A stretch of 64,000 bases of DNA from Escherichia coli (lineage in GTDB: Bacteria > Pseudomonadota > Gammaproteobacteria > Enterobacterales > Enterobacteriaceae), in assembly GCF_048403405.1 (NCBI RefSeq), contig NZ_CP183131.1; one strand, written 5' to 3'. The notes under the pieces are model-generated. The model did no database searches. It saw only the letters and a program-made list of their open reading frames with translations, and had not been told where the DNA came from. The first letter of the stretch is position 1; every line of letters begins with the position of its first letter. A program made the translations under genes and the position numbers. This document shows positions 5,144 to 59,587 of the stretch, one piece after another.

Positions 5144-5377
5144 GTCAAACGCCTCATTGAGCACCGGCAGTAATCCCTCACCTTCATGGGTCAGCACCAG
5201 CCCGCGCGAGACGCGGGTAAACAGCACACAGCCGAGTTGTTCTTCCAGCGCCCTGACCTGCTGGCTGACGGCGGCATGGGTGACATTCAGCTCAATCGCC
5301 GCGCGGGTAAAACTGAGATGACGGGCGGCGGCCTCAAAGGCGCGCAGCGGGTTAAGGGGGAGATAACGTCTGACCAT
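5144..5377 (-). pseudogene. ampR: ampR (LysR-type regulator) 5' remnant, truncated by IS26
   Basis: LysR HTH N-terminus (MVRRYLPLNPLRAFEAAARHLSFTRAA…) fused into IS26 sequence after about 78 codons; downstream of qnrA1 as in ISCR1-qnrA1 modules. Confidence 0.8.
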
Positions 5378-5562
5378 AATCCACCTGTAAGTTTTTCTTT
5401 AGGGCAGTTGAGTCTTCATAATGCCTCCTTTGAAGGGAAGGTATAACGTCGGCTGCGGCAGCAGAGAAACGGCATTCCGGCGGTAATACTCTGCTATAGC
5501 AGAATCTGCCTTGTTGTAGCGCGGAACTCAAGTGATATTTGCCTCTTGTGTTTGCATTCGAG

Positions 5563-6219
5563 CTAATCCGGCAGCACTATTACTCCCAAGGGTTCCAGCA
5601 GTTGCTCCTGTTGCCAGGCACAGATCTTGACTCCTTCGAGGTTGACCCGTCTGGGGTCGAGCCCATCCAGATCGGCAAAGGTCAGGTCACAGCCCCGCAG
5701 ATTGACCTGTTGCCAACAGTCGCGGGAGAAGGTGCCGCGGCTGAGATCTGAGCCCATCAAGGAAGCGCCGCTGAGATTGGCATTGCTCCAGTTGTTTTCA
5801 AACAGCTCGCATTTTTCCAGGCATTGGCCACTCAAGTTGGTATAGGCCAGGTTGCAACCTGAGATATAAGCCGAGCAGAAGTACATCTTATGGCTGACTT
5901 GATTGTAGAAGCGGGCCCGGGAAAAGTTGGCGCCCTTGAGATCGCACTCCCTGAACTCTATGCCAAAGCAGTTGGCACCGCTGAAGTTGGCCAAAGACAG
6001 ACGGCAGGCCTTGAAACTGGCATCGCGCAGATCGGCATAGCTGAAGTGACACCCTTCAACGGCGCCGCTTTCAATGAAACTGCAATCCTCGAAACTGGCA
6101 TCCTGCAGCTGACAGTGGCTGAAGTCACACTGATAAAAGCGGCAGCGGCGAAAACGGCTGTCACTCAAATCCTGGCGTGAGAAATCCTCTTGCTGAAAAA
6201 CTTTATCAATAATATCCAT
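5563..6219 (-). CDS. qnrA1: Quinolone-resistance pentapeptide-repeat protein QnrA1
   Basis: 218 aa, MDIIDKVFQQEDFSRQDLSDSRFRRCRFYQCDFSHCQLQDASF…, pentapeptide repeats throughout; adjacent to ISCR1. Confidence 0.88.
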   Translation of the reverse strand: MDIIDKVFQQEDFSRQDLSDSRFRRCRFYQCDFSHCQLQDASFEDCSFIESGAVEGCHFSYADLRDASFKACRLSLANFSGANCFGIEFRECDLKGANFSRARFYNQVSHKMYFCSAYISGCNLAYTNLSGQCLEKCELFENNWSNANLSGASLMGSDLSRGTFSRDCWQQVNLRGCDLTFADLDGLDPRRVNLEGVKICAWQQEQLLEPLGVIVLPD

Positions 6220-6270
6220 ACGGCTTCCTTTAATCAGGGAGGGTGCTAACGGGTATAGGAAGTATAAACC

Positions 6271-8424
6271 ACCTTTTTGCTCCTCATCCGAAGTATCTTA
6301 CCTGAAATTCCCTCACTCGTTTACCGCTCAAGCCCCAATTTTAACTGCCGGTCCAGCCTAAACCGCTCTAATAAGGTTCGATTTGGCGGTAAAATCTCTA
6401 GCCTGATAGCTCGAGAGATACAAACTGCCCCACCGCCCCGTTTAAAAGTTGGCAGTGTTGAGCAGTGTTGGATTTGGGGTCGTCAGTCAAAGAGACGACT
6501 CTGTGATGGATCGAACAGGCTGGGAGTCAGTGGCGGCGCTCGTTCTGGTGGCAGCTCACGCTGCTTGGCGGCATTCGCCTTGGCTGTTTTCTGTTTCAGA
6601 TGCTTGAGAATCTGCTCAATGACCTTCGGATCTTCGATGCTGGCAATCACTTTGACGTGACCGCCGCAGTGTTCGCAGACTTCAATATCAATATTGAAGA
6701 CTCGCTTGAGGCGTTGCATCCAGGTCATGGCGCGGTGGCGCTCTGCAGGACTCTTGTCACGCCAGTTAGTATCGAGACCTTCCGATTTGTCGGGCTTCTT
6801 GCCCCGCTTGGCGGGTGTTACTTGAACTCGGTGTTTGCTGTTCGGTGCAAAGACGCCGTGGAAGCGTGTGAGGTTGACTCGCGGCTTAGGTACCAACGCA
6901 GCGAGTTTGGCGATGAAGTCCAGCGGCTCGAAGATCACATGGGTGGTGCCATTGCGGTACGGAGTTTTGAGCTCGTAACGCACCTGCCCATTGGCGGTTA
7001 ATGCCAGACGTTTTTCTGAAACCGCTGGCCGACTAATGTAGCGACACAAGCGCTCAAGCTTATCCCGCTGATGCGCTTCGGCCATCACACCGGCGTGTAG
7101 CGAGAAACCAGCATGGTTGGCTACTCGACTGCTTGAGTCGGCTTTATCCTCACGCCCTGGCAAGGTTTGCAGGGTGAAGACTTTGCGCCCTTGCTGGGGG
7201 CCGACGGCAATGCGATACGTAACCGAAGCACCATGTAATTGAGTCAGCGTATCGTCTTCGCCCTCTTCCAGTGTCAACCACGTATTCTCGGCATCACGCT
7301 CCAAAATCCCACGCTTTTCCATGCAGCGAGCGATGCGATGGCTGAGGGTGTGAGCGAGCGTATTCAGCTCATCGTAAGTGGGTGCCTTGACACGATGGAA
7401 GCGTTGCTTGCCATAGTCATCTTCGGCATAGACACCATCGAGAAACAGCATGTGGTAGTGGACATTGAGATTTAGCGCGGAGCCAAAGCGTTGGATAAGA
7501 GTCACTGAGCCAGTTTGTGCAGAGGCTTTGGTGTAACCGGCTTTTTTGATCAGATGAGTTGAGAGTGTACGATAGACGATACTCAAGACCTGGCCCATCA
7601 GCTGGGGATGGCGAGCCAGCAAAAAGCGTAGCTGGAAAGGAAAGCTGAGCACCCACTGGCGAATGGGCTCCTTGGGGAAGACTTCGTCTATCAGCAGCGC
7701 CGCACTCTCGGCCATCCGGCGGGCACCGCAGCTAGGGCAAAAGCCGCGTCGTTTACAGCTGAAGGCGACCAGACGCTCGTGATGACAATCCTCGCAGCGA
7801 ACCCGCATGAAACCATACTCCAGACGGCCACATTGGAGGAGGTCGTTGAATTCTTGTTGGATGTAGCGAGGCAGGTGTTGACCTTGGGCTTCGAGTGAGG
7901 CTTTGAAGGCTGGGTAGTGCTGCTCAACCAGCTGGTAGAGCAGCGTCTGGTCGGGTTGGTGGCGTTCGTAACCGTTTGTTTGAGTGGGCGATTGACTCGC
8001 CGTGGCGTTCCTTGCCAGCGACATGGGTATCCTCCGCTGATACTGTGGTTATGTACAGTATCAGCGGCTTGCGTTCAGACGTCCAGTCTGGCCCTAGACA
8101 TCGCTAAATGCTTAACCCGCAATAGCCCTCACGAGTTGTTATCAGCCACTACCGGTTGAGCGAGAAGGTTTTGGGTTCAGGGTGCTATTGCTCCACCAAT
8201 CACAATACTGAAGCCCCAACTGTTATCAGTTGGGGCTTTTTCTTGTCTGTTTGCGGCGGTTGCGTTTTATCGGTAGTCGTCGAGCTCTGCACCATCCCAC
8301 ATAAGAGCTTAACGGTGCGATCTTCAACGCCATCACACAAAACTTTCTTTTTCACGCACAGTCAACTTATTGGATGTTTTATTAACAACCCAAAAGGAGA
8401 TATTTAGCGGGCGGCCGGAAGGTG
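6271..8424 (-). mobile_element. ISCR1: ISCR1 (boundaries approximate)
   Basis: Contains orf513; located directly after sul1 and before qnrA1 as in complex class 1 integrons; ends not verified at nucleotide level. Confidence 0.65.
6483..8024 (-). CDS. orf513: ISCR1 rolling-circle transposase (Orf513)
   Basis: 513 aa, MSLARNATASQSPTQTNGYERHQPDQTLLYQLVEQHY…; IS91-like HUH transposase features. Confidence 0.9.
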   Translation of the reverse strand: MSLARNATASQSPTQTNGYERHQPDQTLLYQLVEQHYPAFKASLEAQGQHLPRYIQQEFNDLLQCGRLEYGFMRVRCEDCHHERLVAFSCKRRGFCPSCGARRMAESAALLIDEVFPKEPIRQWVLSFPFQLRFLLARHPQLMGQVLSIVYRTLSTHLIKKAGYTKASAQTGSVTLIQRFGSALNLNVHYHMLFLDGVYAEDDYGKQRFHRVKAPTYDELNTLAHTLSHRIARCMEKRGILERDAENTWLTLEEGEDDTLTQLHGASVTYRIAVGPQQGRKVFTLQTLPGREDKADSSSRVANHAGFSLHAGVMAEAHQRDKLERLCRYISRPAVSEKRLALTANGQVRYELKTPYRNGTTHVIFEPLDFIAKLAALVPKPRVNLTRFHGVFAPNSKHRVQVTPAKRGKKPDKSEGLDTNWRDKSPAERHRAMTWMQRLKRVFNIDIEVCEHCGGHVKVIASIEDPKVIEQILKHLKQKTAKANAAKQRELPPERAPPLTPSLFDPSQSRLFD

Positions 8425-8428
8425 AATG

Positions 8429-9268
8429 CTAGGCATGATCTAACCCTCGGTCTCTGGCGTCGCGACTGCGAAATTTCGCGAGGGTTTCCGAGAAGGTGAT
8501 TGCGCTTCGCAGATCTCCAGGCGCGTGGGTGCGGACGTAGTCAGCGCCATTGCCGATCGCGTGAAGTTCCGCCGCAAGGCTCGCTGGACCCAGATCCTTT
8601 ACAGGAAGGCCAACGGTGGCGCCCAAGAAGGATTTCCGCGACACCGAGACCAATAGCGGAAGCCCCAACGCCGACTTCAGCTTTTGAAGGTTCGACAGCA
8701 CGTGCAGCGATGTTTCCGGTGCGGGGCTCAAGAAAAATCCCATCCCCGGATCGAGGATGAGCCGGTCGGCAGCGACCCCGCTCCGTCGCAAGGCGGAAAC
8801 CCGCGCCTCGAAGAACCGCACAATCTCGTCGAGCGCGTCTTCGGGTCGAAGGTGACCGGTGCGGGTGGCGATGCCATCCCGCTGCGCTGAGTGCATAACC
8901 ACCAGCCTGCAGTCCGCCTCAGCAATATCGGGATAGAGCGCAGGGTCAGGAAATCCTTGGATATCGTTCAGGTAGCCCACGCCGCGCTTGAGCGCATAGC
9001 GCTGGGTTTCCGGTTGGAAGCTGTCGATTGAAACACGGTGCATCTGATCGGACAGGGCGTCTAAGAGCGGCGCAATACGTCTGATCTCATCGGCCGGCGA
9101 TACAGGCCTCGCGTCCGGATGGCTGGCGGCCGGTCCGACATCCACGACGTCTGATCCGACTCGCAGCATTTCGATCGCCGCGGTGACAGCGCCGGCGGGG
9201 TCTAGCCGCCGGCTCTCATCGAAGAAGGAGTCCTCGGTGAGATTCAGAATGCCGAACACCGTCACCAT
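8429..9268 (-). CDS. sul1: Sulfonamide-resistant dihydropteroate synthase Sul1
   Basis: 279 aa from [21 protein letters not shown]…; overlaps the qacEdelta1 stop (atggtgac); ORF-track N-terminal extension rejected. Confidence 0.92.
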
Positions 9269-9609
9269 GGCGTCGGCCTCCGCAGCGACTTCCACGATGG
9301 GGATCGGGCGAGCAAAAAGGCAGCAATTATGAGCCCCATACCTACAAAGCCCCACGCATCAAGCTTTTGCCCATGAAGCAACCAGGCAATGGCTGTAATT
9401 ATGACGACGCCGAGTCCCGACCAGACTGCATAAGCAACACCGACAGGGATGGATTTCAGAACCAGAGAAAGAAAATAAAATGCGATGCCATAACCGATTA
9501 TGACAACGGCGGAAGGGGCAAGCTTAGTAAAGCCCTCGCTAGATTTTAATGCGGATGTTGCGATTACTTCGCCAACTATTGCGATAACAAGAAAAAGCCA
9601 GCCTTTCAT
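9262..9609 (-). CDS. qacEdelta1: QacEdelta1, truncated SMR efflux protein of the class 1 integron 3'-CS
   Basis: 115 aa, [27 protein letters not shown]…. Confidence 0.92.
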
Positions 9610-9707
9610 GATATATCTCCCAATTTGTGTAGGGCTTATTATGCACGCTTAAAAATAATAAAAGCAGACTTGACCTGATAGTTTGGCTGTGAGCAATTAT
9701 GTGCTTA

Positions 9708-9772
9708 GTGCATCTAACGCCGGAGTTAAGCCGCCGCGCGTAGCGCGGTCGGCTTGAACGAATTGTTAGACA
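9708..9772 (-). other. attC (59-be) of the aadA2 cassette
   Basis: Imperfect inverted repeat catctaacgccggagttaagccgccgcgcgtagcgcggtcggcttgaacgaattgttagac between aadA2 and qacEdelta1. Confidence 0.6.
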
Positions 9773-10564
9773 TCATTTACCAACTGACTTGATGATCTCG
9801 CCTTTCACAAAGCGAATAAATTCTTCCAAGTGATCTGCGCGTGAGGCCAAGTGATCTTCTTTTTGTCCCAGATAAGCTTGCTTAGCTTCAAGTAAGACGG
9901 GCTGATACTGGGCAGGTAGGCGTTTTATTGCCCAGTCGGCAGCGACATCCTTCGGCGCGATTTTGCCGGTTATTGCGCTGTACCAAATGCGGGACAACGT
10001 AAGCACTACATTTCGCTCATCGCCGGCCCAGTCGGGCTGCGAGTTCCATAGCTTCAAGGTTTCCCTCAGCGCCTCGAATAGATCCTGTTCAGGAACCGGG
10101 TCAAAGAATTCCTCCGCTGCCGGACCTACCAAGGCAACGCTATGTTCTCTTGCTTTTGTAAGCAGGATAGCTAGATCAATGTCGATCATGGCTGGCTCGA
10201 AGATACCCGCAAGAATGTCATTGCGCTGCCATTCTCCAAATTGCAGCTCGCGCTTAGCCGGATAACGCCACGGGATGATGTCGTCATGCACGACAAGGGT
10301 GACTTCTATAGCGCGGAGCGTCTCGCTCTCGCCAGGGAAAGCCGAAGCCTCCATAAGATCATTGAGCAATGCTCGCCGCGTCGTTTCATCAAGCTTTACG
10401 GCCACAGTAACCAACAAATCAATATCGCTGTATGGCTTCAGGCCGCCATCCACTGCGGAGCCGTACAAATGCACGGCCAGCAACGTTGATTCCAGATGGC
10501 GCTCAATGACGCTTAGCACCTCTGATAGTTGGTTCGAAATTTCGATGGTCACCGCTTCCCTCAT
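9773..10564 (-). CDS. aadA2: Aminoglycoside (3'')(9) adenylyltransferase AadA2
   Basis: 263 aa, MREAVTIEISNQLSEVLSVIERHLESTLLAVHLYGSAVDGGLKPYSDIDLL…. Confidence 0.88.
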   Translation of the reverse strand: MREAVTIEISNQLSEVLSVIERHLESTLLAVHLYGSAVDGGLKPYSDIDLLVTVAVKLDETTRRALLNDLMEASAFPGESETLRAIEVTLVVHDDIIPWRYPAKRELQFGEWQRNDILAGIFEPAMIDIDLAILLTKAREHSVALVGPAAEEFFDPVPEQDLFEALRETLKLWNSQPDWAGDERNVVLTLSRIWYSAITGKIAPKDVAADWAIKRLPAQYQPVLLEAKQAYLGQKEDHLASRADHLEEFIRFVKGEIIKSVGK

Positions 10565-10569
10565 GATGT

Positions 10570-10860
10570 CTAACGGGCGAGGTAAGCCGACCGCAGAATG
10601 CGGGTCGGCTTGACCGAAATGTTAGAACCAGAAGCCAAAACGGATAACTTGAATTTGGCGACGGGCGCTAACCGTGAAAAAACGCTGCGCCACCGAGGCG
10701 GCACAGCACTGCAAAAACGATAGCTGCTTGCGCTTGCTACGCAAGGGCTAGAGGCCAAAAAGACTGAAAACCTGCGCAGCCCATGCAGGCGAAGCCCGGA
10801 AAAAAGGCAAAACAGGCACTGAATAACGCCTGAAAAGCTAAATGCCGTTTGAATAAACAT
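10570..10860 (-). CDS. gcuF: Gene cassette of unknown function (gcuF / orfF)
   Basis: 96-aa ORF between dfrA12 and aadA2; the dfrA12-gcuF-aadA2 array is well established; attC-like repeat at 10567-10627. Confidence 0.65.
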   Translation of the reverse strand: MFIQTAFSFSGVIQCLFCLFSGLRLHGLRRFSVFLASSPCVASASSYRFCSAVPPRWRSVFSRLAPVAKFKLSVLASGSNISVKPTRILRSAYLAR

Positions 10861-10971
10861 GAGCTAAATAAAGCTGGGTTTCAGTGGTGCTAACGTTGGA
10901 CGTAACGAGAGCCGGAGCGCAGCGGAGGGAACCAAAATGCGCAGCATTTTGGCGTCCCGTTGACGGAATGG

Positions 10972-11469
10972 TTAGCCGTTTCGACGCGCATAAACGGAGT
11001 GGGTGTACGGAATTACAGCTTGAATGGTTTCGGTTGAGACAAGCTCGAATTCTGTTTCGTTGAGCATTGGGAAGAAGGCGTCACCCTCGAAGGTTTGATG
11101 TACCTCAGATAGAAACACGCCGTGGGCGTGAGGTAGTGCCAGAGTGTATATCTCAGCTCCGCCCGCGACGTAGAGTTCATTGCCGAGTTCGGATGCCAAA
11201 GCGATAGCGTGCGACAGCGTTGAAACAACTACGCAGCCAGTGGCGCGGTAGTTAGCTTGGCGTGAGATTACCAATGTGTGACGGTTCGGTAGAGGCTTGC
11301 CGATAGACTCAAAGGTCTTTCGCCCCATGACAACGACTTTTCCCTCAGTGAGTCTGCGAAAAATCTTCTGCTCACCCGGAATTTTCCAGGGGATATTAGG
11401 ACCATTGCCAATAACCCGATTGGCTCCCATCGCAGCAACGAGATAAATGCGTACTGATTCCGAGTTCAT
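10972..11469 (-). CDS. dfrA12: Trimethoprim-resistant dihydrofolate reductase DfrA12
   Basis: 165 aa, MNSESVRIYLVAAMGANRVIGNGPNIPWKIPGEQKIFRRLTEGKVVVMGRKTFESIG…. Confidence 0.87.
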   Translation of the reverse strand: MNSESVRIYLVAAMGANRVIGNGPNIPWKIPGEQKIFRRLTEGKVVVMGRKTFESIGKPLPNRHTLVISRQANYRATGCVVVSTLSHAIALASELGNELYVAGGAEIYTLALPHAHGVFLSEVHQTFEGDAFFPMLNETEFELVSTETIQAVIPYTHSVYARRNG

Positions 11470-11540
11470 ATGGCTAACTTTGTTTTAGGGCGACTGCCCT
11501 GCTGCGTAACATCGTTGCTGCTCCATAACATCAAACATCG
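11470..11540 (-). other. attI1 integration site
   Basis: Canonical attI1 sequence (reverse complement …gccctaaaacaaagttagcc) abutting the first cassette. Confidence 0.7.
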
Positions 11541-11613
11541 ACCCACGGCGTAACGCGCTTGCTGCTTGGATGCCCGAGGCATAGACTGTACAAAAAAACA
11601 GTCATAACAAGCC

Positions 11614-12627
11614 ATGAAAACCGCCACTGCGCCGTTACCACCGCTGCGTTCGGTCAAGGTTCTGGACCAGTTGCGTGAGCGCATACGCTACTTGCATTAC
11701 AGCTTACCAACCGAACAGGCTTATGTCCACTGGGTTCGTGCCTTCATCCGTTTCCACGGTGTGCGTCACCCGGCAACCTTGGGCAGCAGCGAAGTCGAGG
11801 CATTTCTGTCCTGGCTGGCGAACGAGCGCAAGGTTTCGGTCTCCACGCATCGTCAGGCATTGGCGGCCTTGCTGTTCTTCTACGGCAAGGTGCTGTGCAC
11901 GGATCTGCCCTGGCTTCAGGAGATCGGAAGACCTCGGCCGTCGCGGCGCTTGCCGGTGGTGCTGACCCCGGATGAAGTGGTTCGCATCCTCGGTTTTCTG
12001 GAAGGCGAGCATCGTTTGTTCGCCCAGCTTCTGTATGGAACGGGCATGCGGATCAGTGAGGGTTTGCAACTGCGGGTCAAGGATCTGGATTTCGATCACG
12101 GCACGATCATCGTGCGGGAGGGCAAGGGCTCCAAGGATCGGGCCTTGATGTTACCCGAGAGCTTGGCACCCAGCCTGCGCGAGCAGCTGTCGCGTGCACG
12201 GGCATGGTGGCTGAAGGACCAGGCCGAGGGCCGCAGCGGCGTTGCGCTTCCCGACGCCCTTGAGCGGAAGTATCCGCGCGCCGGGCATTCCTGGCCGTGG
12301 TTCTGGGTTTTTGCGCAGCACACGCATTCGACCGATCCACGGAGCGGTGTCGTGCGTCGCCATCACATGTATGACCAGACCTTTCAGCGCGCCTTCAAAC
12401 GTGCCGTAGAACAAGCAGGCATCACGAAGCCCGCCACACCGCACACCCTCCGCCACTCGTTCGCGACGGCCTTGCTCCGCAGCGGTTACGACATTCGAAC
12501 CGTGCAGGATCTGCTCGGCCATTCCGACGTCTCTACGACGATGATTTACACGCATGTGCTGAAAGTTGGCGGTGCCGGAGTGCGCTCACCGCTTGATGCG
12601 CTGCCGCCCCTCACTAGTGAGAGGTAG
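11614..12627 (+). CDS. intI1: Class 1 integron integrase IntI1
   Basis: 337 aa, [53 protein letters not shown]…; divergent from the cassettes. Confidence 0.95.
11701..11729 (-). promoter_or_regulatory. Cassette promoter Pc, weak variant with extended -10 (PcW TGN-10)
   Basis: Minus strand reads TGGACA-N17-TAAGCT, with TGG immediately upstream of the -10 (gttggtaagct). Confidence 0.75.
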
Positions 12628-12804
12628 GGCAGCGCAAGTCAATCCTGGCGGATTCACTACCCCTGCGCGAAGGCCATCGGTGCCGCATCGAACGGCCGGT
12701 TGCGGAAAGTCCTCCCTGCGTCCGCTGATGGCCGGCAGCAGCCCGTCGTTGCCTGATGGATCCAACCCCTCCGCTGCTATAGTGCAGTCGGCTTCTGACG
12801 TTCA

Positions 12805-12829
12805 GTGCAGCCGTCTTCTGAAAACGACA
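12805..12829. repeat. IRi, 25-bp integrase-end inverted repeat of the class 1 integron
   Basis: gtgcagccgtcttctgaaaacgaca is the reverse complement of the canonical IRi; 20 bp later the sequence is cut by IS26. Confidence 0.75.
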
Positions 12830-12849
12830 ATGGAGGTGGTAGCCGAGGG

Positions 12850-13669
12850 GGCACTGTTGCAAAGTTAGCGATGAGGCAGCCTTTTGTCTTATTCAAAGGC
12901 CTTACATTTCAAAAACTCTGCTTACCAGGCGCATTTCGCCCAGGGGATCACCATAATAAAATGCTGAGGCCTGGCCTTTGCGTAGTGCACGCATCACCTC
13001 AATACCTTTGATGGTGGCGTAAGCCGTCTTCATGGATTTAAATCCCAGCGTGGCGCCGATTATCCGTTTCAGTTTGCCATGATCGCATTCAATCACGTTG
13101 TTCCGGTACTTAATCTGTCGGTGTTCAACGTCAGACGGGCACCGGCCTTCGCGTTTGAGCAGAGCAAGCGCGCGACCATAGGCGGGCGCTTTATCCGTGT
13201 TGATGAATCGCGGGATCTGCCACTTCTTCACGTTGTTGAGGATTTTACCCAGAAACCGGTATGCAGCTTTGCTGTTACGACGGGAGGAGAGATAAAAATC
13301 GACAGTGCGGCCCCGGCTGTCGACGGCCCGGTACAGATACGCCCAGCGGCCATTGACCTTCACGTAGGTTTCATCCATGTGCCACGGGCAAAGATCGGAA
13401 GGGTTACGCCAGTACCAGCGCAGCCGTTTTTCCATTTCAGGCGCATAACGCTGAACCCAGCGGTAAATCGTGGAGTGATCGACATTCACTCCGCGTTCAG
13501 CCAGCATCTCCTGCAGCTCACGGTAACTGATGCCGTATTTGCAGTACCAGCGTACGGCCCACAGAATGATGTCACGCTGAAAATGCCGGCCTTTGAATGG
13601 GTTCATGTGCAGCTCCATCAGCAAAAGGGGATGATAAGTTTATCACCACCGACTATTTGCAACAGTGCC
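12850..13669 (-). mobile_element. IS26: IS26, complete 820 bp (tnp26 12902-13606, minus strand)
   Basis: Terminal IRs at 12850-12863 and 13656-13669; identical Tnp26 ORF; inverted relative to the copy at the window start. Confidence 0.97.
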
Positions 13670-13962
13670 GTATCACTCATGGCCTGTTTCGGCTTCACAA
13701 AAAAATGGTTCATTTTGTGCGCAAACGTCCAGCTTTCAGAATCGCCAAAAGCATGAGTGATATAGGTTTCGTCAGGCGCGACAACAATGTGGGTAGCCAC
13801 ACCGGCGATAGCGTCAATTTTGACCACATTAACAGGGTTATAAACAACGCTTTTAATGCGATAGTCATAAGGATAATTGCGGCCAACCTCAAGCGCCATA
13901 ACGTTAGTGGCCGCGCCTCCCAGGACTGACAAAACGACTGCTGAAAGAAGTAGTTTTTTCAT
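13670..13962 (-). pseudogene. traO: traO (VirB9-like), 5' portion including signal peptide; interrupted by IS26
   Basis: MKKLLLSAVVLSVLGGAATNVMA signal peptide then VirB9 N-domain; ORF reads into the IS26 IR; 8-bp gtatcact at the junction. Confidence 0.8.
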
Positions 13963-13972
13963 GGGGCAGCCC

Positions 13973-14359
13973 TCAGTTAACTTCAGGGTTGACGCGATAA
14001 CTCGTCACGCGGAAACCCAGCGGGTTGACATAACGCTGCTCAGCATTCATCGCCAGCGATTTATATTCATACCCCATAATGGCAATCCAGCGCTGCGGCT
14101 GATCATCAACGGGATTGCTGCGCACGCGGCGAACCGTAGTAAAGCGTATCGTTGCTACGCCGTGCGGTTTATCGAGGATCACAGAGTTAATCTTCACGCG
14201 GGTCGTTTCACTGTCGCCCAGAACCTTATCAAGACCGTTGCGGCCCTTGAACTTGCTCTGGTAAGACTCTGCCACGTTCGGCGTGGACATTAAGCCAACG
14301 GCCGTTATGCTCTCTAGTTGAACGACGGATCTCTTCCGAAACTCCACGCAAAAAACCAA
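13973..14359 (-). pseudogene. traE: traE (VirB8-like), 3' portion only; 5'-truncated at a recombination junction
   Basis: C-terminal VirB8-type domain (…NPLGFRVTSYRVNPEVN); in-frame stop directly upstream of the first codon; no N-terminal TM region. Confidence 0.6.
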
Positions 14360-14732
14360 TTACATTGGCCCGGAATGTACGTCTCTTCTCCTCTATCTCA
14401 AGCAAGTAACTCAAGTAGAAGTAAAACGGTATCGAGACGAACAATGACAAAGGGAACCAGCCTTTTTCGCTGGCAGAAACAAAGAGTCTCGGCTCAAACA
14501 TTTTCATGGCGAGGGTCGCCATTAGCACAGAGACAACTACTGGAGTCACCGCCATCAAAAATCGGGAATGAAGGTACGCCATCCAGACCCCAGCGACTAA
14601 AGCTGTTAGCGAGAGGAACATAGCAACAACCAACGGGCTCGCATCAATGGCGATTAGCCCTATCTGGACGATAATGACGAAGCAAAGAAGCAATATTCTG
14701 TATAAAAATGACCGCATTCCAACCCACCTCAA
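14360..14732 (-). pseudogene. Multi-TM membrane protein, apparently 3'-truncated and frame-fused to traE-derived sequence
   Basis: 167-aa ORF with 3-4 hydrophobic helices; its last ~40 codons overlap the VirB8 fragment in another frame. Confidence 0.4.
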
Positions 14733-17441: not shown

Positions 17442-17489
17442 TTTGTCACCTCGTCGTTAAGTTCAACTAATCTGATTGCCTTGGCGCTA

Positions 17490-17882: not shown

Positions 17883-17886
17883 CTCA

Positions 17887-18225: not shown

Positions 18226-18371
18226 TTCTCCTCTCTGCCGTTTTGATGCTCTCTCCTGGCCGCACCAGCTCGCTCCCTAGCCCACTCAGCTAGAGCATTG
18301 ATTAAGTCGCTGACTTCTGAGTGGAATATCAATGACACAGCAAGAGCAGTCCAAAAAATCCACTCCATCGC

Positions 18372-19906: not shown

Positions 19907-19908
19907 TA

Positions 19909-27081: not shown

Positions 27082-27984
27082 TTAGGCCTCGTAATAGAAA
27101 TTTTTTGTGTCCGGATAGGGTTTAAAGCAATGAGCCGTGGCTCTCCCCAGGGAAAGCACTGAAGCCTCAGCTTCCGGCGCTTCCTCAGTGTCTTCACGAA
27201 ATTCCCCGCCAAGTTGCTTCACCCATTCGGCAGCGAGCTGCACACCTTCATCAAAGGGAACTTTGTTCTTTTGAAGCACATCCAGATAGGAAAGCAGCAA
27301 GCAGTGAGGCGTAATGACGGCGGTGTTCCAATCGGTTGCGAGCCGTGTTTCGTCCATATCTGCATACCAGGCATCAACCTGATGTTTCAATCCGATCTCG
27401 GCCATCATGCCGTGCTTACCGGCGACCTTTCTGCCTTCCTCTACCACATCAACCGGGGCGTCCCAGTAGAGGACTCCCCCGTCCGCTTCTTGGGTCGCAC
27501 AGGTTGCACCTTGCGGCCAATGCCTCCGTTCCATAACGAGCTCGCAGAGCGTTTGGTTGCCTACAGGAGCCTTGTAGTCCTCATCGAGATTCACCACGAT
27601 GGTTTCCGGCTCCTGTTCAACCGGTGGCAGGTATCTGGCGACCAGAGGCATTGTCAAAATCACAGCCCCATCCATGTGAAAGGATGTTGGAGCCTTCACT
27701 ATTCGGTCCATTACCCAGCACCAAGCATGAAGCAACCGATCCTCTACCTTGTCGTCAGCCTCAATCTCTTGAACGAACTGGTTGAAACGAACCTGACTAT
27801 CCAGAAACAGGCCTGTGCTCTGACACTTATCGCTGATCGTATGAATGAGCTCCGCCTGCTCCAGAAGCATTTCTCGGGTGACTTCCTCCACATCACCAAA
27901 TGCGTCAAACAACTTTGTCATGTAGTCACGAATTTGCATGTTCTTCCCCCTCGGCATCGAATTGCTTTGCAAGCTCAGGATCAC
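27082..27984 (-). CDS. Hypothetical protein
   Basis: 300-aa ORF. Confidence 0.45.
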   Translation of the reverse strand: MILSLQSNSMPRGKNMQIRDYMTKLFDAFGDVEEVTREMLLEQAELIHTISDKCQSTGLFLDSQVRFNQFVQEIEADDKVEDRLLHAWCWVMDRIVKAPTSFHMDGAVILTMPLVARYLPPVEQEPETIVVNLDEDYKAPVGNQTLCELVMERRHWPQGATCATQEADGGVLYWDAPVDVVEEGRKVAGKHGMMAEIGLKHQVDAWYADMDETRLATDWNTAVITPHCLLLSYLDVLQKNKVPFDEGVQLAAEWVKQLGGEFREDTEEAPEAEASVLSLGRATAHCFKPYPDTKNFYYEA

Positions 27985-28156
27985 CGGCCCAGCGAAGGGC
28001 GTCTCCCATATGCGTGAAAGCGCGTTTATTGTTATCCTGCTTATTCACCCTGACCGGCGTCTTTTGGTCACGAGGCTGTAGTAGCCAGTACCCGGCCTCT
28101 TCCCTGATTAGTTCTGCGGCCACCAGAAAGCCGTTCTTCGTTGCAATGATCATCAT
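27926..28156 (-). CDS. Hypothetical small protein
   Basis: 76-aa ORF. Confidence 0.3.
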   Translation of the reverse strand: MMIIATKNGFLVAAELIREEAGYWLLQPRDQKTPVRVNKQDNNKRAFTHMGDALRWAGDPELAKQFDAEGEEHANS

Positions 28157-38093: not shown

Positions 38094-39194
38094 CTATCTC
38101 CCCTTACGTTGGGGTTCATCAATGATGTCGTGGTCGATCATGCCGTGCTTGATGGCCCGTAGCTCTGTCTGCTGCTTACGCTTGTTGGACGCCATCACCT
38201 GCTTCACGAAGTTCTCATGAGGCCTTATGACGTACCGCACGTCGATGACTCTGCGGCCATCCTTGATCTGGTTCGCGTCGTAGTCGCTTATGACCTCTTG
38301 TTTGATGAGGGCCTCCAGAGCGAGCTTCATGGCTCTGACGTTCTCCGGCATCCGTGGGCTCAATTCACGAGGGCTCTGGGTCAGGAAGCTGATAAGCGAT
38401 GGCGTGTACGGCGAATCTGGTGATGCTTGAGTCCAGTAGTGGCTCATTCGCTTGTAGATGTACCGTGCAAGAGGGGAGCGGATTTGCATTCCGATTTTGT
38501 AGTTGTACTGACGAAACGACAGATTCATGATCGATTCGTTTACCAGCGGGTTGAACTGCACATAGCACCTGGCGTTCCCGCCTTTCTTGCGAAACTCACC
38601 TCTGGTGGTCAGTCCCACCATCGGGAAGAAGCTGGAGCTGATGAAGGCTTCACCGTCATCACTGATACATTCGAGTGTTGCGCCACGACAAACCTGGATT
38701 GCTTCCTTGATTTCGTTCAGGTTGTACCCGTGACCCATCTTCGAGAGCTCTTTCTGGAGTTCGTACAGAGTGAACATGACTCCAGCCTTGCCCTCGATGA
38801 TATGGCCTTTCCCGTTCACTGCGAGCTTGCGTAGAGCATCCTCAAGGATTTCCTCTCGCTGTCCCGCGTAGATCAGCACGGTTCTTCCGTCATCCTTCTC
38901 GATGATGGCTGGCTTCACCTTCACCGTGAAATGCTGGCCTCTGATGGTGCATTGTCGTGTCACTACAGCGTTGGATAAATCTTCATGCTCACGCTTTTGG
39001 TCCCAAATGTACTTCGGCAGCGCATCGTAGATCTCGATGGTGTTGGAGTAGTCGTCTTTCTTGGCCGGAGATTCAATGATCTCAAACAGGCTCATTTGCG
39101 GTGAGTCTTTGATTACGTCGAGTTTCTCCAGGTCTTTGTCTTTGGTTCTCTTGCTCATGATTGTTCCGTCGATACTTTCTAGCTGGTGGTCCAT
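38094..39194 (-). CDS. repA: Iteron-type plasmid replication initiator RepA
   Basis: 366-aa ORF immediately upstream of the iteron array; true start may be the internal Met at 39158. Confidence 0.7.
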   Translation of the reverse strand: MDHQLESIDGTIMSKRTKDKDLEKLDVIKDSPQMSLFEIIESPAKKDDYSNTIEIYDALPKYIWDQKREHEDLSNAVVTRQCTIRGQHFTVKVKPAIIEKDDGRTVLIYAGQREEILEDALRKLAVNGKGHIIEGKAGVMFTLYELQKELSKMGHGYNLNEIKEAIQVCRGATLECISDDGEAFISSSFFPMVGLTTRGEFRKKGGNARCYVQFNPLVNESIMNLSFRQYNYKIGMQIRSPLARYIYKRMSHYWTQASPDSPYTPSLISFLTQSPRELSPRMPENVRAMKLALEALIKQEVISDYDANQIKDGRRVIDVRYVIRPHENFVKQVMASNKRKQQTELRAIKHGMIDHDIIDEPQRKGR

Positions 39195-41802: not shown

Positions 41803-41803
41803 C

Positions 41804-48985: not shown

Positions 48986-48997
48986 TCCAATAGCTCC

Positions 48998-50431: not shown

Positions 50432-50432
50432 C

Positions 50433-51473: not shown

Positions 51474-51554
51474 GCTCGATATGGTAGAGGTGGGAGGCGT
51501 GAAATTAGGCAGGTGTAAGCGCCCATTTAGGGCGCTTAGAGCGTTTTATTTGTC

Positions 51555-51572
51555 AACTTTCACATGTGAAAG
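51555..51572. promoter_or_regulatory. Palindromic operator-like site (copy 8 of 8)
   Basis: aactttcacatgtgaaag between the helicase stop and the traF start. Confidence 0.5.
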
Positions 51573-51583
51573 AATTGACCAAA

Positions 51584-53116: not shown

Positions 53117-53382
53117 ATCTGGAGAGTGATGCGCTTCTTTTGTGTCGAGAGGAACGTACTGATCCGCTTTTCTTCTCGGGGGAGGGATACTTCACAATCC
53201 AGATCTGTCCACCAGTCTGGGGCTTTACCTTGAGCCACCTCCGTAACCCAACTATGGAGACGGTGTAACCAGCGATAGTCGCCAATAGATGAGGTGGCTA
53301 GTGTCATAGCCTCCTCAATCTTGGTTTGAAGAGCCGCAGCTCTGTGTCGCCACTCTTCTGAATATTTAGCCTTTCGCGCCAT
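53104..53382 (-). CDS. Hypothetical small protein
   Basis: 92-aa ORF coupled between the KfrA-like gene and the helicase. Confidence 0.4.
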   Translation of the reverse strand: MARKAKYSEEWRHRAAALQTKIEEAMTLATSSIGDYRWLHRLHSWVTEVAQGKAPDWWTDLDCEVSLPREEKRISTFLSTQKKRITLQMCLS

Positions 53383-54422: not shown

Positions 54423-54450
54423 GAGAACGTTCCTTTTAATTTGTAATGTT

Positions 54451-54495
54451 TACGATAATTACGATAATTACGATAATTACGATAATTACGATAAT
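54451..54495. repeat. Tandem 9-bp repeat (tacgataat) x5 plus degenerate copies
   Basis: Five perfect head-to-tail copies 29 bp upstream of the KfrA-like start. Confidence 0.9.
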
Positions 54496-54608
54496 ACGGT
54501 AATTATCATAATTATATATCATGCTGCTGTCGATTGGAATTGTTTGTGTGGGACAAAGCCCTTCCGGCTGCGGAAAAGCCTTGTTACGCGGTCACGCTGA
54601 TTCATCCA

Positions 54609-54646
54609 GGGGGAGCCCGCAGAATTCGGAAAAAATCGTACGCTAA
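54609..54646. repeat. 38-bp terminal inverted repeat of a Tn1721-type (Tn21 subgroup) transposon
   Basis: ggggagcccgcagaattcggaaaaaatcgtacgctaag; the tnpA stop lies inside it. Confidence 0.8.
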
Positions 54647-56159
54647 GGTTTTCCGGGCATCCGTAAGGGCCGAAACTTCCCGTCTTCCAGTCTGCGGCTC
54701 TGCCGCCAGACGTAATCGCCGGTTAGGTTGATGTGCTCCCAGCCCAGCGGCGACAGGAATTGCAGCAGCTCGCCGTCCACCGGCTTGCCGGCCTCGACCA
54801 ACCCCTGGGTGGCGCGTTCCAGGTACACCGTGTTCCACAGCACGATAGCCGCCGTCACCAGGTTGAGGCCGCTGGCCCGGTAGCGCTGCTGCTCGAAGCT
54901 CCGATCCCTGATTTCCCCAAGGCGGTTGAAGAACACCGCCCTGGCCAGCGAGTTGCGCGCCTCACCTTTGTTCAGGCCGGCATGCACGCGGCGGCGCAGT
55001 TCAACACTTTGCAGCCAGTCCAGGATGAACAGCGTGCGCTCGATCCGGCCCAGCTCGCGCAGGGCCACGGCCAGTCCGTTCTGGCGCGGGTAGCTGCCGA
55101 GCTTGCGCAGCATCAGCGAGGCGGTGACGGTGCCCTGCTTGATCGAGCTGGCCAGGCGCAGGATGTCGTCCCAGTGGGCACGCACGTGCTTGATGTTCAG
55201 GGTGCCGCCGATCAGCGGGCGCAACGTCGGGTAGGCTTGCACGCCCTGCGGCACGTACAGCTTGGTTTCGCCGAGGTCGCGGATGCGCGGCGCGAAGCGG
55301 AAGCCTAGCAGGTGCATCAGGGCAAAGACGTGATCGGTGAAGCCGGCCGTGTCGGTGTAGTGCTCCTCGATCCGCAGGTCGGACTCGTGGTACAGCAGGC
55401 CGTCGAGCACATAGGTGGAATCGCGGACGCCGACATTCACCACGCGGGTGCTGAACGGCGCGTACTGGTCGGAGATATGGGTATAGAACAGCCGTCCCGG
55501 CTCGCTACCGTACTTCGGGTTGACGTGCCCGGTGCTCTCGCCCCGGCCACCCGCGCGGAAGCGCTGGCCATCGGAGGATGAGGTCGTGCCGTCGCCCCAG
55601 TGGGCGGCAAAGGCGTGGCGATACTGGTGGTTGACCAGCTCGGCCAAGGCCGCCGAATAGGTTTCGTCGCGGATGTGCCAGGCTTGCAGCCAGGACAGCT
55701 TGGCGTAGGTCAGGCCGGGGCTCGACTCGGCCATCTTGGTCAGCCCGAGGTTGATCGCATCACCGAGGATTGCGGACAGCAGCAACGTCCTGTCTTTGGC
55801 CTCGGCCCCGTCCTTCAAGTGGGTGAAGTGGCGGCTGAAGCCCGTCCAGTCGTCCACGTCCATCAGCAGTTCGGTGATCTTGATGCGCGGCAGTAACTGG
55901 CTGGTTTGGTCGATCAGCGCCTGCGCCCGATCCGGCACCGCCGCATCCAGCGGGGTGATTTTCAGCCCTGACTCGGTGAGGATGGCATCGGGCAGCTCGT
56001 TGTCCTTGGCCAGGCGGGTGACGGTGGCCAACTGCTCGTCCAGCAGCTGCAAACGCTCTTCCAGGTACTGGTCGCTGTTCGGGTTGATCGCCAGGGGCAG
56101 GGCCTGCTCGCGCTTGAGTGCGGCGAACTTCTCGGCCGGCAGCAGGTAGTCGTCGAAGT
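54643..56159 (-). pseudogene. tnpA: Tn3-family transposase tnpA, 3' portion (Tn1721-like), 5' end removed by IS26
   Basis: 505 codons of TnpA C-terminus ending in the IR; ORF reads into the IS26 IR at 56160. Confidence 0.85.
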
Positions 56160-56979
56160 GGCACTGTTGCAAATAGTCGGTGGTGATAAACTTATCATCC
56201 CCTTTTGCTGATGGAGCTGCACATGAACCCATTCAAAGGCCGGCATTTTCAGCGTGACATCATTCTGTGGGCCGTACGCTGGTACTGCAAATACGGCATC
56301 AGTTACCGTGAGCTGCAGGAGATGCTTGCTGAACGCGGAGTGAATGTCGATCACTCCACGATTTACCGCTGGGTTCAGCGTTATGCGCCTGAAATGGAAA
56401 AACGGCTGCGCTGGTACTGGCGTAACCCTTCCGATCTTTGCCCGTGGCACATGGATGAAACCTACGTGAAGGTCAATGGCCGCTGGGCGTATCTGTACCG
56501 GGCCGTCGACAGCCGGGGCCGCACTGTCGATTTTTATCTCTCCTCCCGTCGTAACAGCAAAGCTGCATACCGGTTTCTGGGTAAAATCCTCAACAACGTG
56601 AAGAAGTGGCAGATCCCGCGATTCATCAACACGGATAAAGCGCCCGCCTATGGTCGCGCGCTTGCTCTGCTCAAACGCGAAGGCCGGTGCCCGTCTGACG
56701 TTGAACACCGACAGATTAAGTACCGGAACAACGTGATTGAATGCGATCATAGCAAACTGAAACGGATAATCGGCGCCACGCTGGGATTTAAATCCATGAA
56801 GACGGCTTACGCCACCATCAAAGGTATTGAGGTGATGCGTGCACTACGCAAAGGCCAGGCCTCAGCATTTTATTATGGTGATCCCCTGGGCGAAATGCGC
56901 CTGGTAAGCAGAGTTTTTGAAATGTAAGGCCTTTGAATAAGACAAAAGGCTGCCTCATCGCTAACTTTGCAACAGTGCC
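56160..56979 (+). mobile_element. IS26: IS26 variant copy, 820 bp (tnp26 56223-56927)
   Basis: Terminal IRs intact; carries Tnp26 Gly177Ser (…ECDHSKLK…) and a synonymous ctg>ctt change shared with the copy at 59588-60407. Confidence 0.96.
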
Positions 56980-57025
56980 TTTAAGCGTGCATAATAAGCC
57001 CTACACAAATTGGGAGTTAGACATC

Positions 57026-57625
57026 ATGAGCAACGCAAAAACAAAGTTAGGCATCACAAAGTACAGCATCGTGACCAACAGCAACGATTCCGTCACACTG
57101 CGCCTCATGACTGAGCATGACCTTGCGATGCTCTATGAGTGGCTAAATCGATCTCATATCGTCGAGTGGTGGGGCGGAGAAGAAGCACGCCCGACACTTG
57201 CTGACGTACAGGAACAGTACTTGCCAAGCGTTTTAGCGCAAGAGTCCGTCACTCCATACATTGCAATGCTGAATGGAGAGCCGATTGGGTATGCCCAGTC
57301 GTACGTTGCTCTTGGAAGCGGGGACGGACGGTGGGAAGAAGAAACCGATCCAGGAGTACGCGGAATAGACCAGTTACTGGCGAATGCATCACAACTGGGC
57401 AAAGGCTTGGGAACCAAGCTGGTTCGAGCTCTGGTTGAGTTGCTGTTCAATGATCCCGAGGTCACCAAGATCCAAACGGACCCGTCGCCGAGCAACTTGC
57501 GAGCGATCCGATGCTACGAGAAAGCGGGGTTTGAGAGGCAAGGTACCGTAACCACCCCATATGGTCCAGCCGTGTACATGGTTCAAACACGCCAGGCATT
57601 CGAGCGAACACGCAGTGATGCCTAA
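57026..57625 (+). CDS. aac(6')-Ib-cr: Aminoglycoside/fluoroquinolone acetyltransferase AAC(6')-Ib-cr
   Basis: 199 aa; both signature substitutions present: Trp102Arg ([10 protein letters not shown]) and Asp179Tyr (TTPYGPAVY); ORF-track N-terminal extension into IS26 rejected. Confidence 0.9.
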
Positions 57626-57691
57626 CCCTTCCATCGAGGGGGACGTCCAAGGGCTGGCGCCCTTGGCCGCCCCTCATGTCAAACGTTGGGC
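57620..57691 (+). other. attC of the aac(6')-Ib cassette
   Basis: Inverse core gcctaac at 57620, core gttgggc at 57685; imperfect inverted repeat. Confidence 0.55.
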
Positions 57692-57755
57692 GAACCCGGA
57701 GCCTCATTAATTGTTAGCCGTTAAAATTAAGCCCTTTACCAAACCAATACTTATT

Positions 57756-58586
57756 ATGAAAAACACAATACATATCAACTTCGCTATTTTTTTAATAATT
57801 GCAAATATTATCTACAGCAGCGCCAGTGCATCAACAGATATCTCTACTGTTGCATCTCCATTATTTGAAGGAACTGAAGGTTGTTTTTTACTTTACGATG
57901 CATCCACAAACGCTGAAATTGCTCAATTCAATAAAGCAAAGTGTGCAACGCAAATGGCACCAGATTCAACTTTCAAGATCGCATTATCACTTATGGCATT
58001 TGATGCGGAAATAATAGATCAGAAAACCATATTCAAATGGGATAAAACCCCCAAAGGAATGGAGATCTGGAACAGCAATCATACACCAAAGACGTGGATG
58101 CAATTTTCTGTTGTTTGGGTTTCGCAAGAAATAACCCAAAAAATTGGATTAAATAAAATCAAGAATTATCTCAAAGATTTTGATTATGGAAATCAAGACT
58201 TCTCTGGAGATAAAGAAAGAAACAACGGATTAACAGAAGCATGGCTCGAAAGTAGCTTAAAAATTTCACCAGAAGAACAAATTCAATTCCTGCGTAAAAT
58301 TATTAATCACAATCTCCCAGTTAAAAACTCAGCCATAGAAAACACCATAGAGAACATGTATCTACAAGATCTGGATAATAGTACAAAACTGTATGGGAAA
58401 ACTGGTGCAGGATTCACAGCAAATAGAACCTTACAAAACGGATGGTTTGAAGGGTTTATTATAAGCAAATCAGGACATAAATATGTTTTTGTGTCCGCAC
58501 TTACAGGAAACTTGGGGTCGAATTTAACATCAAGCATAAAAGCCAAGAAAAATGCGATCACCATTCTAAACACACTAAATTTATAA
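57756..58586 (+). CDS. blaOXA-1: Class D beta-lactamase OXA-1
   Basis: 276 aa from MKNTIHINFAIFLIIANIIYSSASASTDISTVASPLFEGTEGCFLLYD…; STFK active site. Confidence 0.93.
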   Translation: MKNTIHINFAIFLIIANIIYSSASASTDISTVASPLFEGTEGCFLLYDASTNAEIAQFNKAKCATQMAPDSTFKIALSLMAFDAEIIDQKTIFKWDKTPKGMEIWNSNHTPKTWMQFSVVWVSQEITQKIGLNKIKNYLKDFDYGNQDFSGDKERNNGLTEAWLESSLKISPEEQIQFLRKIINHNLPVKNSAIENTIENMYLQDLDNSTKLYGKTGAGFTANRTLQNGWFEGFIISKSGHKYVFVSALTGNLGSNLTSSIKAKKNAITILNTLNL

Positions 58587-58602
58587 AAAATCTAATGGCA
58601 AA

Positions 58603-58695
58603 ATCGCCCAACCCTTCAATCAAGTCGGGACGGCCAAAAGCAAGCTTTTGGCTCCCCTCGCTGGCGCTCGGCGCCCCTTATTTCAAACGTTAGAC
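58603..58695 (+). other. attC of the blaOXA-1 cassette (approximate)
   Basis: Inverted-repeat region ending in core gttagac. Confidence 0.5.
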
Positions 58696-58723
58696 GGCAA
58701 AGTCACAGACCGCGGGATCTCTT

Positions 58724-59356
58724 ATGACCAACTACTTTGATAGCCCCTTCAAAGGCAAGCTGCTTTCTGAGCAAGTGAAGAACCCCAATATCAAAGTTGG
58801 GCGGTACAGCTATTACTCTGGCTACTATCATGGGCACTCATTCGATGACTGCGCACGGTATCTGTTTCCGGACCGTGATGACGTTGATAAGTTGATCATC
58901 GGTAGTTTCTGCTCTATCGGGAGTGGGGCTTCCTTTATCATGGCTGGCAATCAGGGGCATCGGTACGACTGGGCATCATCTTTCCCGTTCTTTTATATGC
59001 AGGAAGAACCTGCATTCTCAAGCGCACTCGATGCCTTCCAAAAAGCAGGTAATACTGTCATTGGCAATGACGTTTGGATCGGCTCTGAGGCAATGGTCAT
59101 GCCCGGAATCAAGATCGGGCACGGTGCGGTGATAGGCAGCCGCTCGTTGGTGACAAAAGATGTGGAGCCTTACGCTATCGTTGGCGGCAATCCCGCTAAG
59201 AAGATTAAGAAACGCTTCACCGATGAGGAAATTTCATTGCTTCTGGAGATGGAGTGGTGGAATTGGTCACTGGAGAAGATCAAAGCGGCAATGCCCATGC
59301 TGTGCTCGTCTAATATTGTTGGCCTGCACAAGTATTGGCTCGAGTTTGCCGTCTAA
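58724..59356 (+). CDS. catB3: Chloramphenicol acetyltransferase CatB3 (full length)
   Basis: 210 aa, hexapeptide-repeat acetyltransferase, [33 protein letters not shown]…. Confidence 0.88.
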
Positions 59357-59410
59357 CAATTCAATCAAGCCGATGCCGCTTCGCGGCACGGCTTATTTCA
59401 GGCGTTATGC
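59351..59410 (+). other. attC of the catB3 cassette (approximate)
   Basis: gtctaac … gttatgc inverted-repeat structure. Confidence 0.5.
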
Positions 59411-59440
59411 AGCCAAATCCCAACAATTAAGGGTCTTAAA

Positions 59441-59587
59441 ATGGTAAAAGATTGGATTCCCATCTCTCATGATAATTACAAGCAGGTGCAAGGACCGTTC
59501 TATCATGGAACCAAAGCCAATTTGGCGATTGGTGACTTGCTAACCACAGGGTTCATCTCTCATTTCGAGGACGGTCGTATTCTTAAG
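59441..59587 (+). pseudogene. arr-3: arr-3 (rifampin ADP-ribosyltransferase), 3'-truncated by IS26 after about 49 codons
   Basis: MVKDWIPISHDNYKQVQGPFYHGTKANLAIGDLLTTGFISHFEDGRIL then IS26 IR. Confidence 0.85.

Follow-up and report, generated by a model that had tools for sequence, protein, structure and literature searches.

A 64,000-nucleotide stretch of the Escherichia coli contig NZ_CP183131.1 (assembly GCF_048403405.1; the whole stretch is called the window below) carries two class 1 integron remnants, each lying between two copies of the insertion sequence IS26. The first, a complex integron with qnrA1 (positions 4324-13669), reads IS26(+)-ampR fragment-qnrA1-ISCR1-sul1-qacEdelta1-aadA2-gcuF-dfrA12-intI1-IRi-20 bp-IS26(-), and the second (56160-60407) reads IS26(+)-aac(6')-Ib-cr-blaOXA-1-catB3-arr-3 fragment-IS26(-). 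They are located in different resistance islands with 42.5 kb of plasmid backbone between them. Integron In37 is known to link the aac(6')-Ib-cr array to ISCR1-qnrA1-ampR (PMC4839121; PMC3374434), and an earlier note on this DNA, made from the letters alone, stated this linkage correctly and read the two remnants as the dispersed components of a single In37-like integron. The limits drawn in that note, 5144 and 59587, are exact inner IS26 boundaries.

Two integron remnants on an IncC plasmid

The first remnant starts at IS26-1 (4324-5143, +), which leaves the first 234 bp (78 codons) of ampR (5144-5377, -), coding for the N-terminal helix-turn-helix of a LysR family regulator. Next come qnrA1 (5563-6219, -; 513.8 bits with the QnrA family model against a cut-off of 450, and 100% identical to annotated qnrA1), the ISCR1 common region (6251-~8404, -), the 3'-conserved segment (3'-CS; 8429-9609, -) with sul1 (8429-9268) and qacEdelta1 (9262-9609), and the cassette array (9773-11469, -), which consists of aadA2 (9773-10564), gcuF (10570-10860; coordinates transferred from a DUF1010 coding sequence in the plasmid CP129693) and dfrA12 (10972-11469). 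ISCR1-qnrA1 thus sits behind dfrA12-gcuF-aadA2, as the earlier note described. Beyond the array lie an intact intI1 (11614-12627, +; 337 aa, aligned over 337/337 positions of the integron integrase model with 797.5 bits) and the inverted repeat IRi (12805-12829), and exactly 20 bp of Tn21-type flank (12830-12849, ATGGAGGTGGTAGCCGAGGG) separate this repeat from the junction with IS26-2 (12850-13669, -). The transposase gene of ISCR1 (6483-8024) matches the IS91 family and, below the cut-off of that model, ISCR clade Ia. The oriIS-side boundary of ISCR1 (6250/6251) is defined by a 3,217-bp tandem duplication in CP129693 (146600-153200), which extends from the oriIS end into qacEdelta1 and of which the window has a single copy (6251-9467); the other boundary, 8404, is approximate and follows from the standard length of 2,154 bp.

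This order is that of a complex sul1-type class 1 integron with ISCR1: an intact intI1 and a cassette array are followed by qacEdelta1-sul1, ISCR1 abuts the shortened 3'-CS, and non-cassette genes (qnrA1 and the ampR fragment; 5144-6250) lie beyond the oriIS end. The second 3'-CS, which closes the second variable region in such integrons, has been removed by IS26-1. It had been suggested that the integron lost its own end to IS26 20 bp beyond IRi. The position of IS26 is exactly so, but IRi is intact and only the Tn21-type backbone flanking it was removed; the end truly lost is the one with ampR and the second 3'-CS, at 5144.

In the second remnant, IS26-3 (56160-56979, +) and IS26-4 (59588-60407, -) enclose a segment (56980-59587, +) of a 46-bp leader and four cassettes, namely aac(6')-Ib-cr (57026-57625, +), blaOXA-1 (57756-58586, +), catB3 (58724-59356, +) and the first 147 of the 453 bp of arr-3 (59441-59587, +), the last being cut by IS26-4. 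IS26-3 abuts the leader, neither intI1 nor attI1 adjoins aac(6')-Ib-cr, and no intI1 was found within 43 kb on that side, so that the description of this array as a separate IS26-bounded unit with a cut arr-3 is accurate. The AAC(6')-Ib protein has both Trp102Arg and Asp179Tyr (GDGRWEEE and TTPYGPAVY in the translation), and its gene is 100% identical to annotated aac(6')-Ib-cr5. Gene identities in the window rest on NCBIfam matches above curated cut-offs (AAC(6')-Ib, OXA-1, CatB, QnrA, Sul1, QacE, DfrA12, AadA family, integron integrase and FosA3) and on 100% DNA identity with annotated records.

The region between the two remnants (13670-56159) is mostly IncC (A/C2) backbone. It contains the replication gene (38094-39194) and traF/H/G, and shows 99.97-99.99% identity to plasmids typed IncC/MOBH/MPF_F; both the replicon and the backbone of this plasmid type are present. 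The first remnant adjoins sul2/strAB/blaTEM/aac(3)-IId and is part of an island in which the relatives also have sul2, strAB, blaTEM-1 and aac(3)-IId, and the second adjoins traF/H/G and lies within a Tn3-family transposon. The closest relative is p2016C06-161-172k (CP129693), an IncC plasmid of Klebsiella pneumoniae from Taiwan; a literature search found no mention of CP129693 or of strain 2016C06-161. This plasmid is 99.97-100% identical to the window and mostly collinear with it, sharing the junctions IS26/ampR, IRi+20 bp/IS26 and IS26/aac(6')-Ib-cr, the fosA3 unit and the insertion in tnpA/tnpR. The differences amount to one inversion, the 3,217-bp ISCR1-sul1 duplication (present in CP129693 and not in the window), 100 bp less of arr-3 in the window, three single-nucleotide polymorphisms (SNPs) and one 9-bp insertion or deletion. 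Two of the SNPs are at 13874 and 30832 and the third is G592A in IS26-3; the 9-bp difference is an insertion in the window (TTACGATAA, 54450-54458), located in the spacer that separates the end of the Tn3-family transposon from the gene of a backbone DNA-binding protein. Three public plasmids, CP129693, CP129834 and CP129872, carry both integron remnants.

Separate modules or a dispersed In37

To see how widely the IS26 junctions occur, we counted them among 72,556 PLSDB plasmids. The IS26/aac(6')-Ib-cr junction is present in at least 1,101 of them, including pC15-1a, and the IRi+20 bp/IS26 junction in 229, including pCTX-M3, while the IS26/ampR fragment junction is found in 5 plasmids, all from K. 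pneumoniae. Of the two IS26 junctions of the qnrA1 integron, that in the Tn21 flank is old and widespread, and that in ampR after 234 bp is specific to the present lineage. At the other end of the aac(6')-Ib-cr module, the junction of IS26 with 247 bp of arr-3 occurs in 21 plasmids; the form in the window, with 147 bp, occurs in none of the PLSDB plasmids and in none of 5,426 complete E. coli genomes.

A module that retains 247 bp of arr-3 and ends on the right in an inverted IS26, and that may be regarded as the parent of the one in the window, is carried by the German E. coli IncF plasmid pC06114_1 and by the Thai IncC plasmid pC723R_NDM1. No qnrA1 is present in the 18-kb regions inspected in these E. 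coli IncF and Thai IncC plasmids; in pC723R_NDM1 the fosA3 unit also follows the module, but at a different location. An earlier stage is seen in pEC014-2, in which a complete arr-3, the 3'-CS and an orf5 fragment are followed by an inverted IS26. All of these plasmids, as well as the pC15-1a type, share with the window the left IS26 junction, the leader and the inverse orientation of the right IS26, and they differ in the breakpoint of the latter: it is in catB3 in the common form, at arr-3 base 247 in the 21 plasmids and at arr-3 base 147 in the window. Taken together, the parent-module plasmids and pEC014-2 form a nested-deletion series of one module, in which the right-hand IS26 would have moved leftwards by successive adjacent deletions from orf5 to arr-3 base 247 and then to base 147. 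A published survey takes the same view and derives the truncated integrons from intI1-aac(6')-Ib-cr-blaOXA-1-catB3-arr-3-qacEdelta1-sul1, an ancestor for which ISCR1-qnrA1 is unnecessary.

Two further features of the orphan array concern its leader and its cassettes. The leader (56980-57025, TTTAAGCGTGCATAATAAGCCCTACACAAATTGGGAG...) is nearly identical to what immediately precedes qacE in the 3'-CS of pEC014-2, which explains about 1,660 weak matches of 92% in the junction search. A promoter-like site (56967-56995) precedes the start codon of aac(6')-Ib-cr by 30 bp and combines a -35 box TTGCAA in the terminal repeat of IS26-3 with a -10 box CATAAT in the leader (56990-56995); judging from this match to the consensus, such a hybrid promoter could drive aac(6')-Ib-cr in place of the lost integron promoter Pc. 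From established integron biology, the intI1 product of the first remnant (11614-12627) could also recombine the attC sites of the array in trans.

The components of the ISCR1-qnrA1 side are likewise found in public plasmids. In36 (AY259085) and In37 (AY259086) were represented by In36-like and In37-like plasmids retrieved with a synthetic two-part query. By this approach, catB3-arr-3-3'-CS-ISCR1-qnrA1-ampR occurs in one piece in about 20 public plasmids, and dfrA12-gcuF-aadA2::ISCR1::qnrA1 in as many, namely about 19 from the genera Klebsiella, Citrobacter, Proteus and Enterobacter and from E. coli. The IncF plasmid p309074-1FIIK (MN842293) and about 18 others contain the whole run from IS26, the 20 bp and IRi to ampR with 100% identity over 5144-12849; p309074-1FIIK, the member of this set that was examined closely, keeps the whole ampR and a second copy of qacEdelta1-sul1, whereas ampR in the window is cut by IS26. 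ISCR1-qnrA1-ampR has been described behind several arrays, namely in In36, In37, In293/In-UMCU-1 and pQR1 (PMC4839121; PMC3374434), with In36 itself having a dfrA16-aadA2 array, and its location behind a non-In37 array therefore needs no In37 ancestor.

The window shares with In37 the cassettes aac(6')-Ib-cr, blaOXA-1/30, catB3 and arr-3 and the ISCR1-qnrA1-ampR region. In37, however, unites all of these in a single integron that begins with intI1 and is closed by a second 3'-CS, whereas the cassettes in the window lack intI1 and attI1 immediately upstream and end in a cut arr-3, and the ISCR1-qnrA1 region has a different array in front of it and no second 3'-CS beyond ampR. The complete array is not contiguous with qacEdelta1-sul1-ISCR1-qnrA1-ampR either, as the last lies 42.5 kb away behind aadA2. 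One could still suppose that an ancestral plasmid contained a single In37-like integron which IS26 then split, that the array was carried off as an IS26-bounded unit, and that dfrA12-gcuF-aadA2 was substituted before ISCR1-qnrA1. In37 does link exactly these components, about 20 plasmids retain the link, the ISCR1-qnrA1-ampR part of the window is 100% identical to theirs, and it is well established that arrays can be swapped without trace by recombination in the conserved segments. No trace of the arr-3 attC is left at the 3'-CS, however, which follows the attC of aadA2 as it does in about 19 further plasmids; each of the two junctions that bound the aac(6')-Ib-cr module already exists in unrelated plasmids; and the two modules are 42.5 kb apart in different islands. 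We thus regard such a break-up as very improbable.

The window most likely derives, and we state this with considerable confidence, from an IncC (A/C2) conjugative multiresistance plasmid of a Taiwanese or East-Asian K. pneumoniae lineage, which acquired two pre-formed, IS26-trimmed class 1 integron remnants independently and in separate islands. The dispersal of one In37-like integron, as first proposed, is not supported, in view of modules and junctions that pre-exist separately, of their location in different islands, and of sister plasmids that have the qnrA1 module alone. These sisters are the 159,072-bp IncC plasmids pGSU10-3-1 (AP018672) and TVGHCRE225 unnamed2 (CP023724), which carry an identical qnrA1 integron with both IS26 junctions and the adjoining IncN fragment, and lack the aac(6')-Ib-cr and fosA3 modules; aac(6')-Ib-cr accompanies pGSU10-3-1 on another plasmid. 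They have a single IS26 at the site, with 605 bp more deleted. In CP023724 this IS26 (27210-28029), which carries G168T, stands in place of IS26-3 through IS26-5, and the missing 605 bp (CP129693 39346-39950) reach into an mcp-like open reading frame (ORF).

Some points weigh against independent acquisition or limit what the sisters tell about it. The 159-kb plasmids were considered as ancestors that would prove a late arrival of aac(6')-Ib-cr, and we rejected them as such proof: their IS26 has G168T and the same left flank as IS26-3, and the further 605-bp deletion runs into an otherwise intact ORF, so they may be deletion derivatives. They could have arisen from a CP129693-like plasmid in one step and need not be ancestral to it, and if they are derivatives, their having qnrA1 and lacking aac(6')-Ib-cr speaks for the independence of the two modules and not for the order of gain. 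The plasmid of the window was itself absent from every collection searched. In addition, a remote shared ancestor of the ISCR1-qnrA1 part with In37 is possible by sequence. This region is 100% identical in the window and the In37-like plasmids, and SNPs are therefore uninformative for a tie to In37 rather than In36; neither a remote ancestor nor the dispersal of In37 has positive support.

IS26 remodelling and the relocated IncN fragment

The window contains six IS26 copies. In addition to the four that bound the integron remnants, IS26-0 (<1-85, +) is represented by its 3' (IRR) end, which is cut by the window start and is identical to the ends of the other copies, and IS26-5 (62905-63724, -) lies beyond the fosA3 segment. 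A silent substitution, G168T, is present in IS26-3, in IS26-4 and in the relatives, and IS26-3 has in addition the private G592A, which changes Gly177 of Tnp26 to Ser (G177S); at this copy CP129693 has only G168T. When the 8-bp sequences beside each of the six copies were compared with one another in direct and in reverse-complement form, a match was obtained for the pair IS26-0 and IS26-2 alone, and the histories of IS26-1, IS26-3, IS26-4 and IS26-5 are thus unreadable from target duplications.

IS26-0 and IS26-2 adjoin the two parts of an IncN-type transfer region. The larger part (86-3881, +; 98.9% identical to R46 10688-14476) starts with the 8-bp target copy AGTGATAC (86-93) next to IS26-0 and includes the C-terminal part of virB9/traO (101-685, +; VirB9 profile positions 95-248), virB10 (685-1845, +), virB11 (1887-2882, +) and nuc (2861-3415, +). 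The other part (13670-14305, -; R46 10695-10060, 97.8%) starts with GTATCACT (13670-13677) and comprises the N-terminal part of virB9 (~13670-13960, -; VirB9 profile positions 9-88), which abuts IS26-2, and the 3' part of virB8. In CP129693 the IncN fragment lies to the right of IS26-2 and virB9 is unsplit. In the window a 4.2-kb fragment that corresponds with 100% identity to CP129693 161489-157252 is inverted and has changed sides, lying beyond the integron and left of IS26-1, and virB9 is therefore split. Between the IncN-type sequence and IS26-1 is a 442-bp remnant (3882-4323) that does not match R46, one frame of which resembles a fragment of an ArsR-type helix-turn-helix regulator. At the far end of the smaller part (14305/14306), the 3' part of virB8 is joined directly to the IncC backbone with no insertion sequence at the junction; this join is the scar of an older event and is common to all the sister plasmids.

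GTATCACT is the reverse complement of AGTGATAC, and the two overlap as one 8-mer in the intact virB9 of R46 and CP129693. Reverse-complement 8-bp target copies at two IS26 copies are the signature of IS26 intramolecular replicative transposition (PMC4471558), and the window shows this signature together with the split gene. The IS26/virB9 junction is absent from PLSDB and from the 5,426 complete E. coli genomes. Neither this junction nor that at arr-3 base 147 occurs in other records of these two sets. As repeats of IS26 are well known to lead to contigs with wrong joins or orientations, one might suspect the shortened arr-3 and the inverted IncN fragment of being assembly artefacts of six identical 820-bp repeats. 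However, mis-assembly across IS26 cannot yield an inverted 8-bp target duplication at a new breakpoint within virB9, nor can it remove exactly 100 bp of unique sequence beside an IS26 end, and both events are textbook products of IS26 (PMC4471558). An artefact is accordingly barely credible. The stepwise IS26 remodelling that the earlier note had put forward is real: it comprises the deletion of 100 bp of arr-3 adjoining IS26-4, which is clean relative to CP129693, and the relocation of the IncN fragment with its inverted 8-bp duplication.

The IncN fragment would have been moved and inverted by a replicative attack of IS26 on the 8-bp target in virB9. The integron segment has kept its orientation, which requires two steps, and these could follow either of two routes. 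In the first, the left IS26 would attack in trans and invert the integron, the IS26 and the fragment together, and the integron would then flip back between the inverted IS26 copies. In the second, the right IS26 would attack in cis and excise a circle of IS26, the fragment and the target, which would re-enter beside the left IS26. Either route would lead to the structure seen in the window, which does not discriminate between them.

The base at which arr-3 is cut in the window recurs in one other record. In p21014_170Kb (ON925022), an unrelated Argentine IncC plasmid, IS26 is joined to arr-3 at the same base 147 (8877-9074; flank TTCTTAAG); relative to the junction at 59587/59588 in the window, this IS26 points the other way, and the array there opens with arr-3, behind a truncated intI1. 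The identical base may reflect either coincidence or a preferred IS26 target. As a tentative reading, to which we give rather little weight, the window could be a derivative of the Taiwanese IncC lineage in which IS26 and the 4.2-kb IncN fragment left virB9 as a circle and re-entered beside another IS26, with arr-3 base 147 perhaps being a preferred target.

Mobility of the segments and implications

The aac(6')-Ib-cr segment is followed by the fosA3 segment (60408-62904, +; fosA3 at 60730-61146), which lies between IS26-4 and IS26-5. Together, the two segments occupy the place of the central part of the tnpA-tnpR region in a Tn3-family transposon. The 3' part of its tnpA (54643-56159, -; transposase profile positions 467-954) is cut by IS26-3, and the 5' part of its resolvase gene tnpR (63725-64000, -), recognized from the translation as belonging to the same transposon, is cut by IS26-5; in CP129693, tnpR is contiguous with res and the mcp-like gene.

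The two integron remnants, being bounded by IS26 and, in the case of the aac(6')-Ib-cr module, being present in many plasmid types, might be taken for translocatable units or pseudo-compound transposons that are active and mobile independently of each other. Such structures have IS26 in direct orientation. Both pairs here, IS26-1(+)/IS26-2(-) and IS26-3(+)/IS26-4(-), are inversely oriented, so that neither resistance segment is a translocatable unit, and aac(6')-Ib-cr structures between inverted IS26 copies have been stated not to be pseudo-compound transposons (PMC11832570, citing Harmer et al. 2020). The only segments with direct pairs are that of fosA3 (IS26-4/IS26-5, both -) and that of the IncN fragment (IS26-0/IS26-1, both +). 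Independent movement of the two resistance segments thus seems unlikely. The related suggestion that three fluoroquinolone- or aminoglycoside-relevant determinants travel in separate mobile units is overstated: aadA2 and qnrA1 share one IS26-bracketed segment, which leaves two segments rather than three, both between inverted IS26 copies, and all the determinants travel together on one conjugative plasmid.

It had been anticipated that database matches might show the arrangement to be already described, and this is the case, with CP129693, CP129834 and CP129872 carrying both modules. Public records already contain the arrangement except for two private IS26 micro-events, and it is ordinary IS26 and class 1 integron biology. 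Its relevance for surveillance lies in the presence of qnrA1, aac(6')-Ib-cr, blaOXA-1, fosA3, aadA2, dfrA12 and sul1 on one conjugative IncC plasmid, a combination already documented in the sister plasmids. Two cautions follow for the reading of such regions: cassettes in common with a named integron such as In37 do not prove descent from it, and an 'IS26-bounded' segment is not a translocatable unit when its IS26 copies are inverted. The scientific value is modest: the region illustrates neatly how IS26 can trim integrons and rearrange a plasmid, through nested adjacent deletions and through an inversion or relocation that is marked by an inverted 8-bp duplication.

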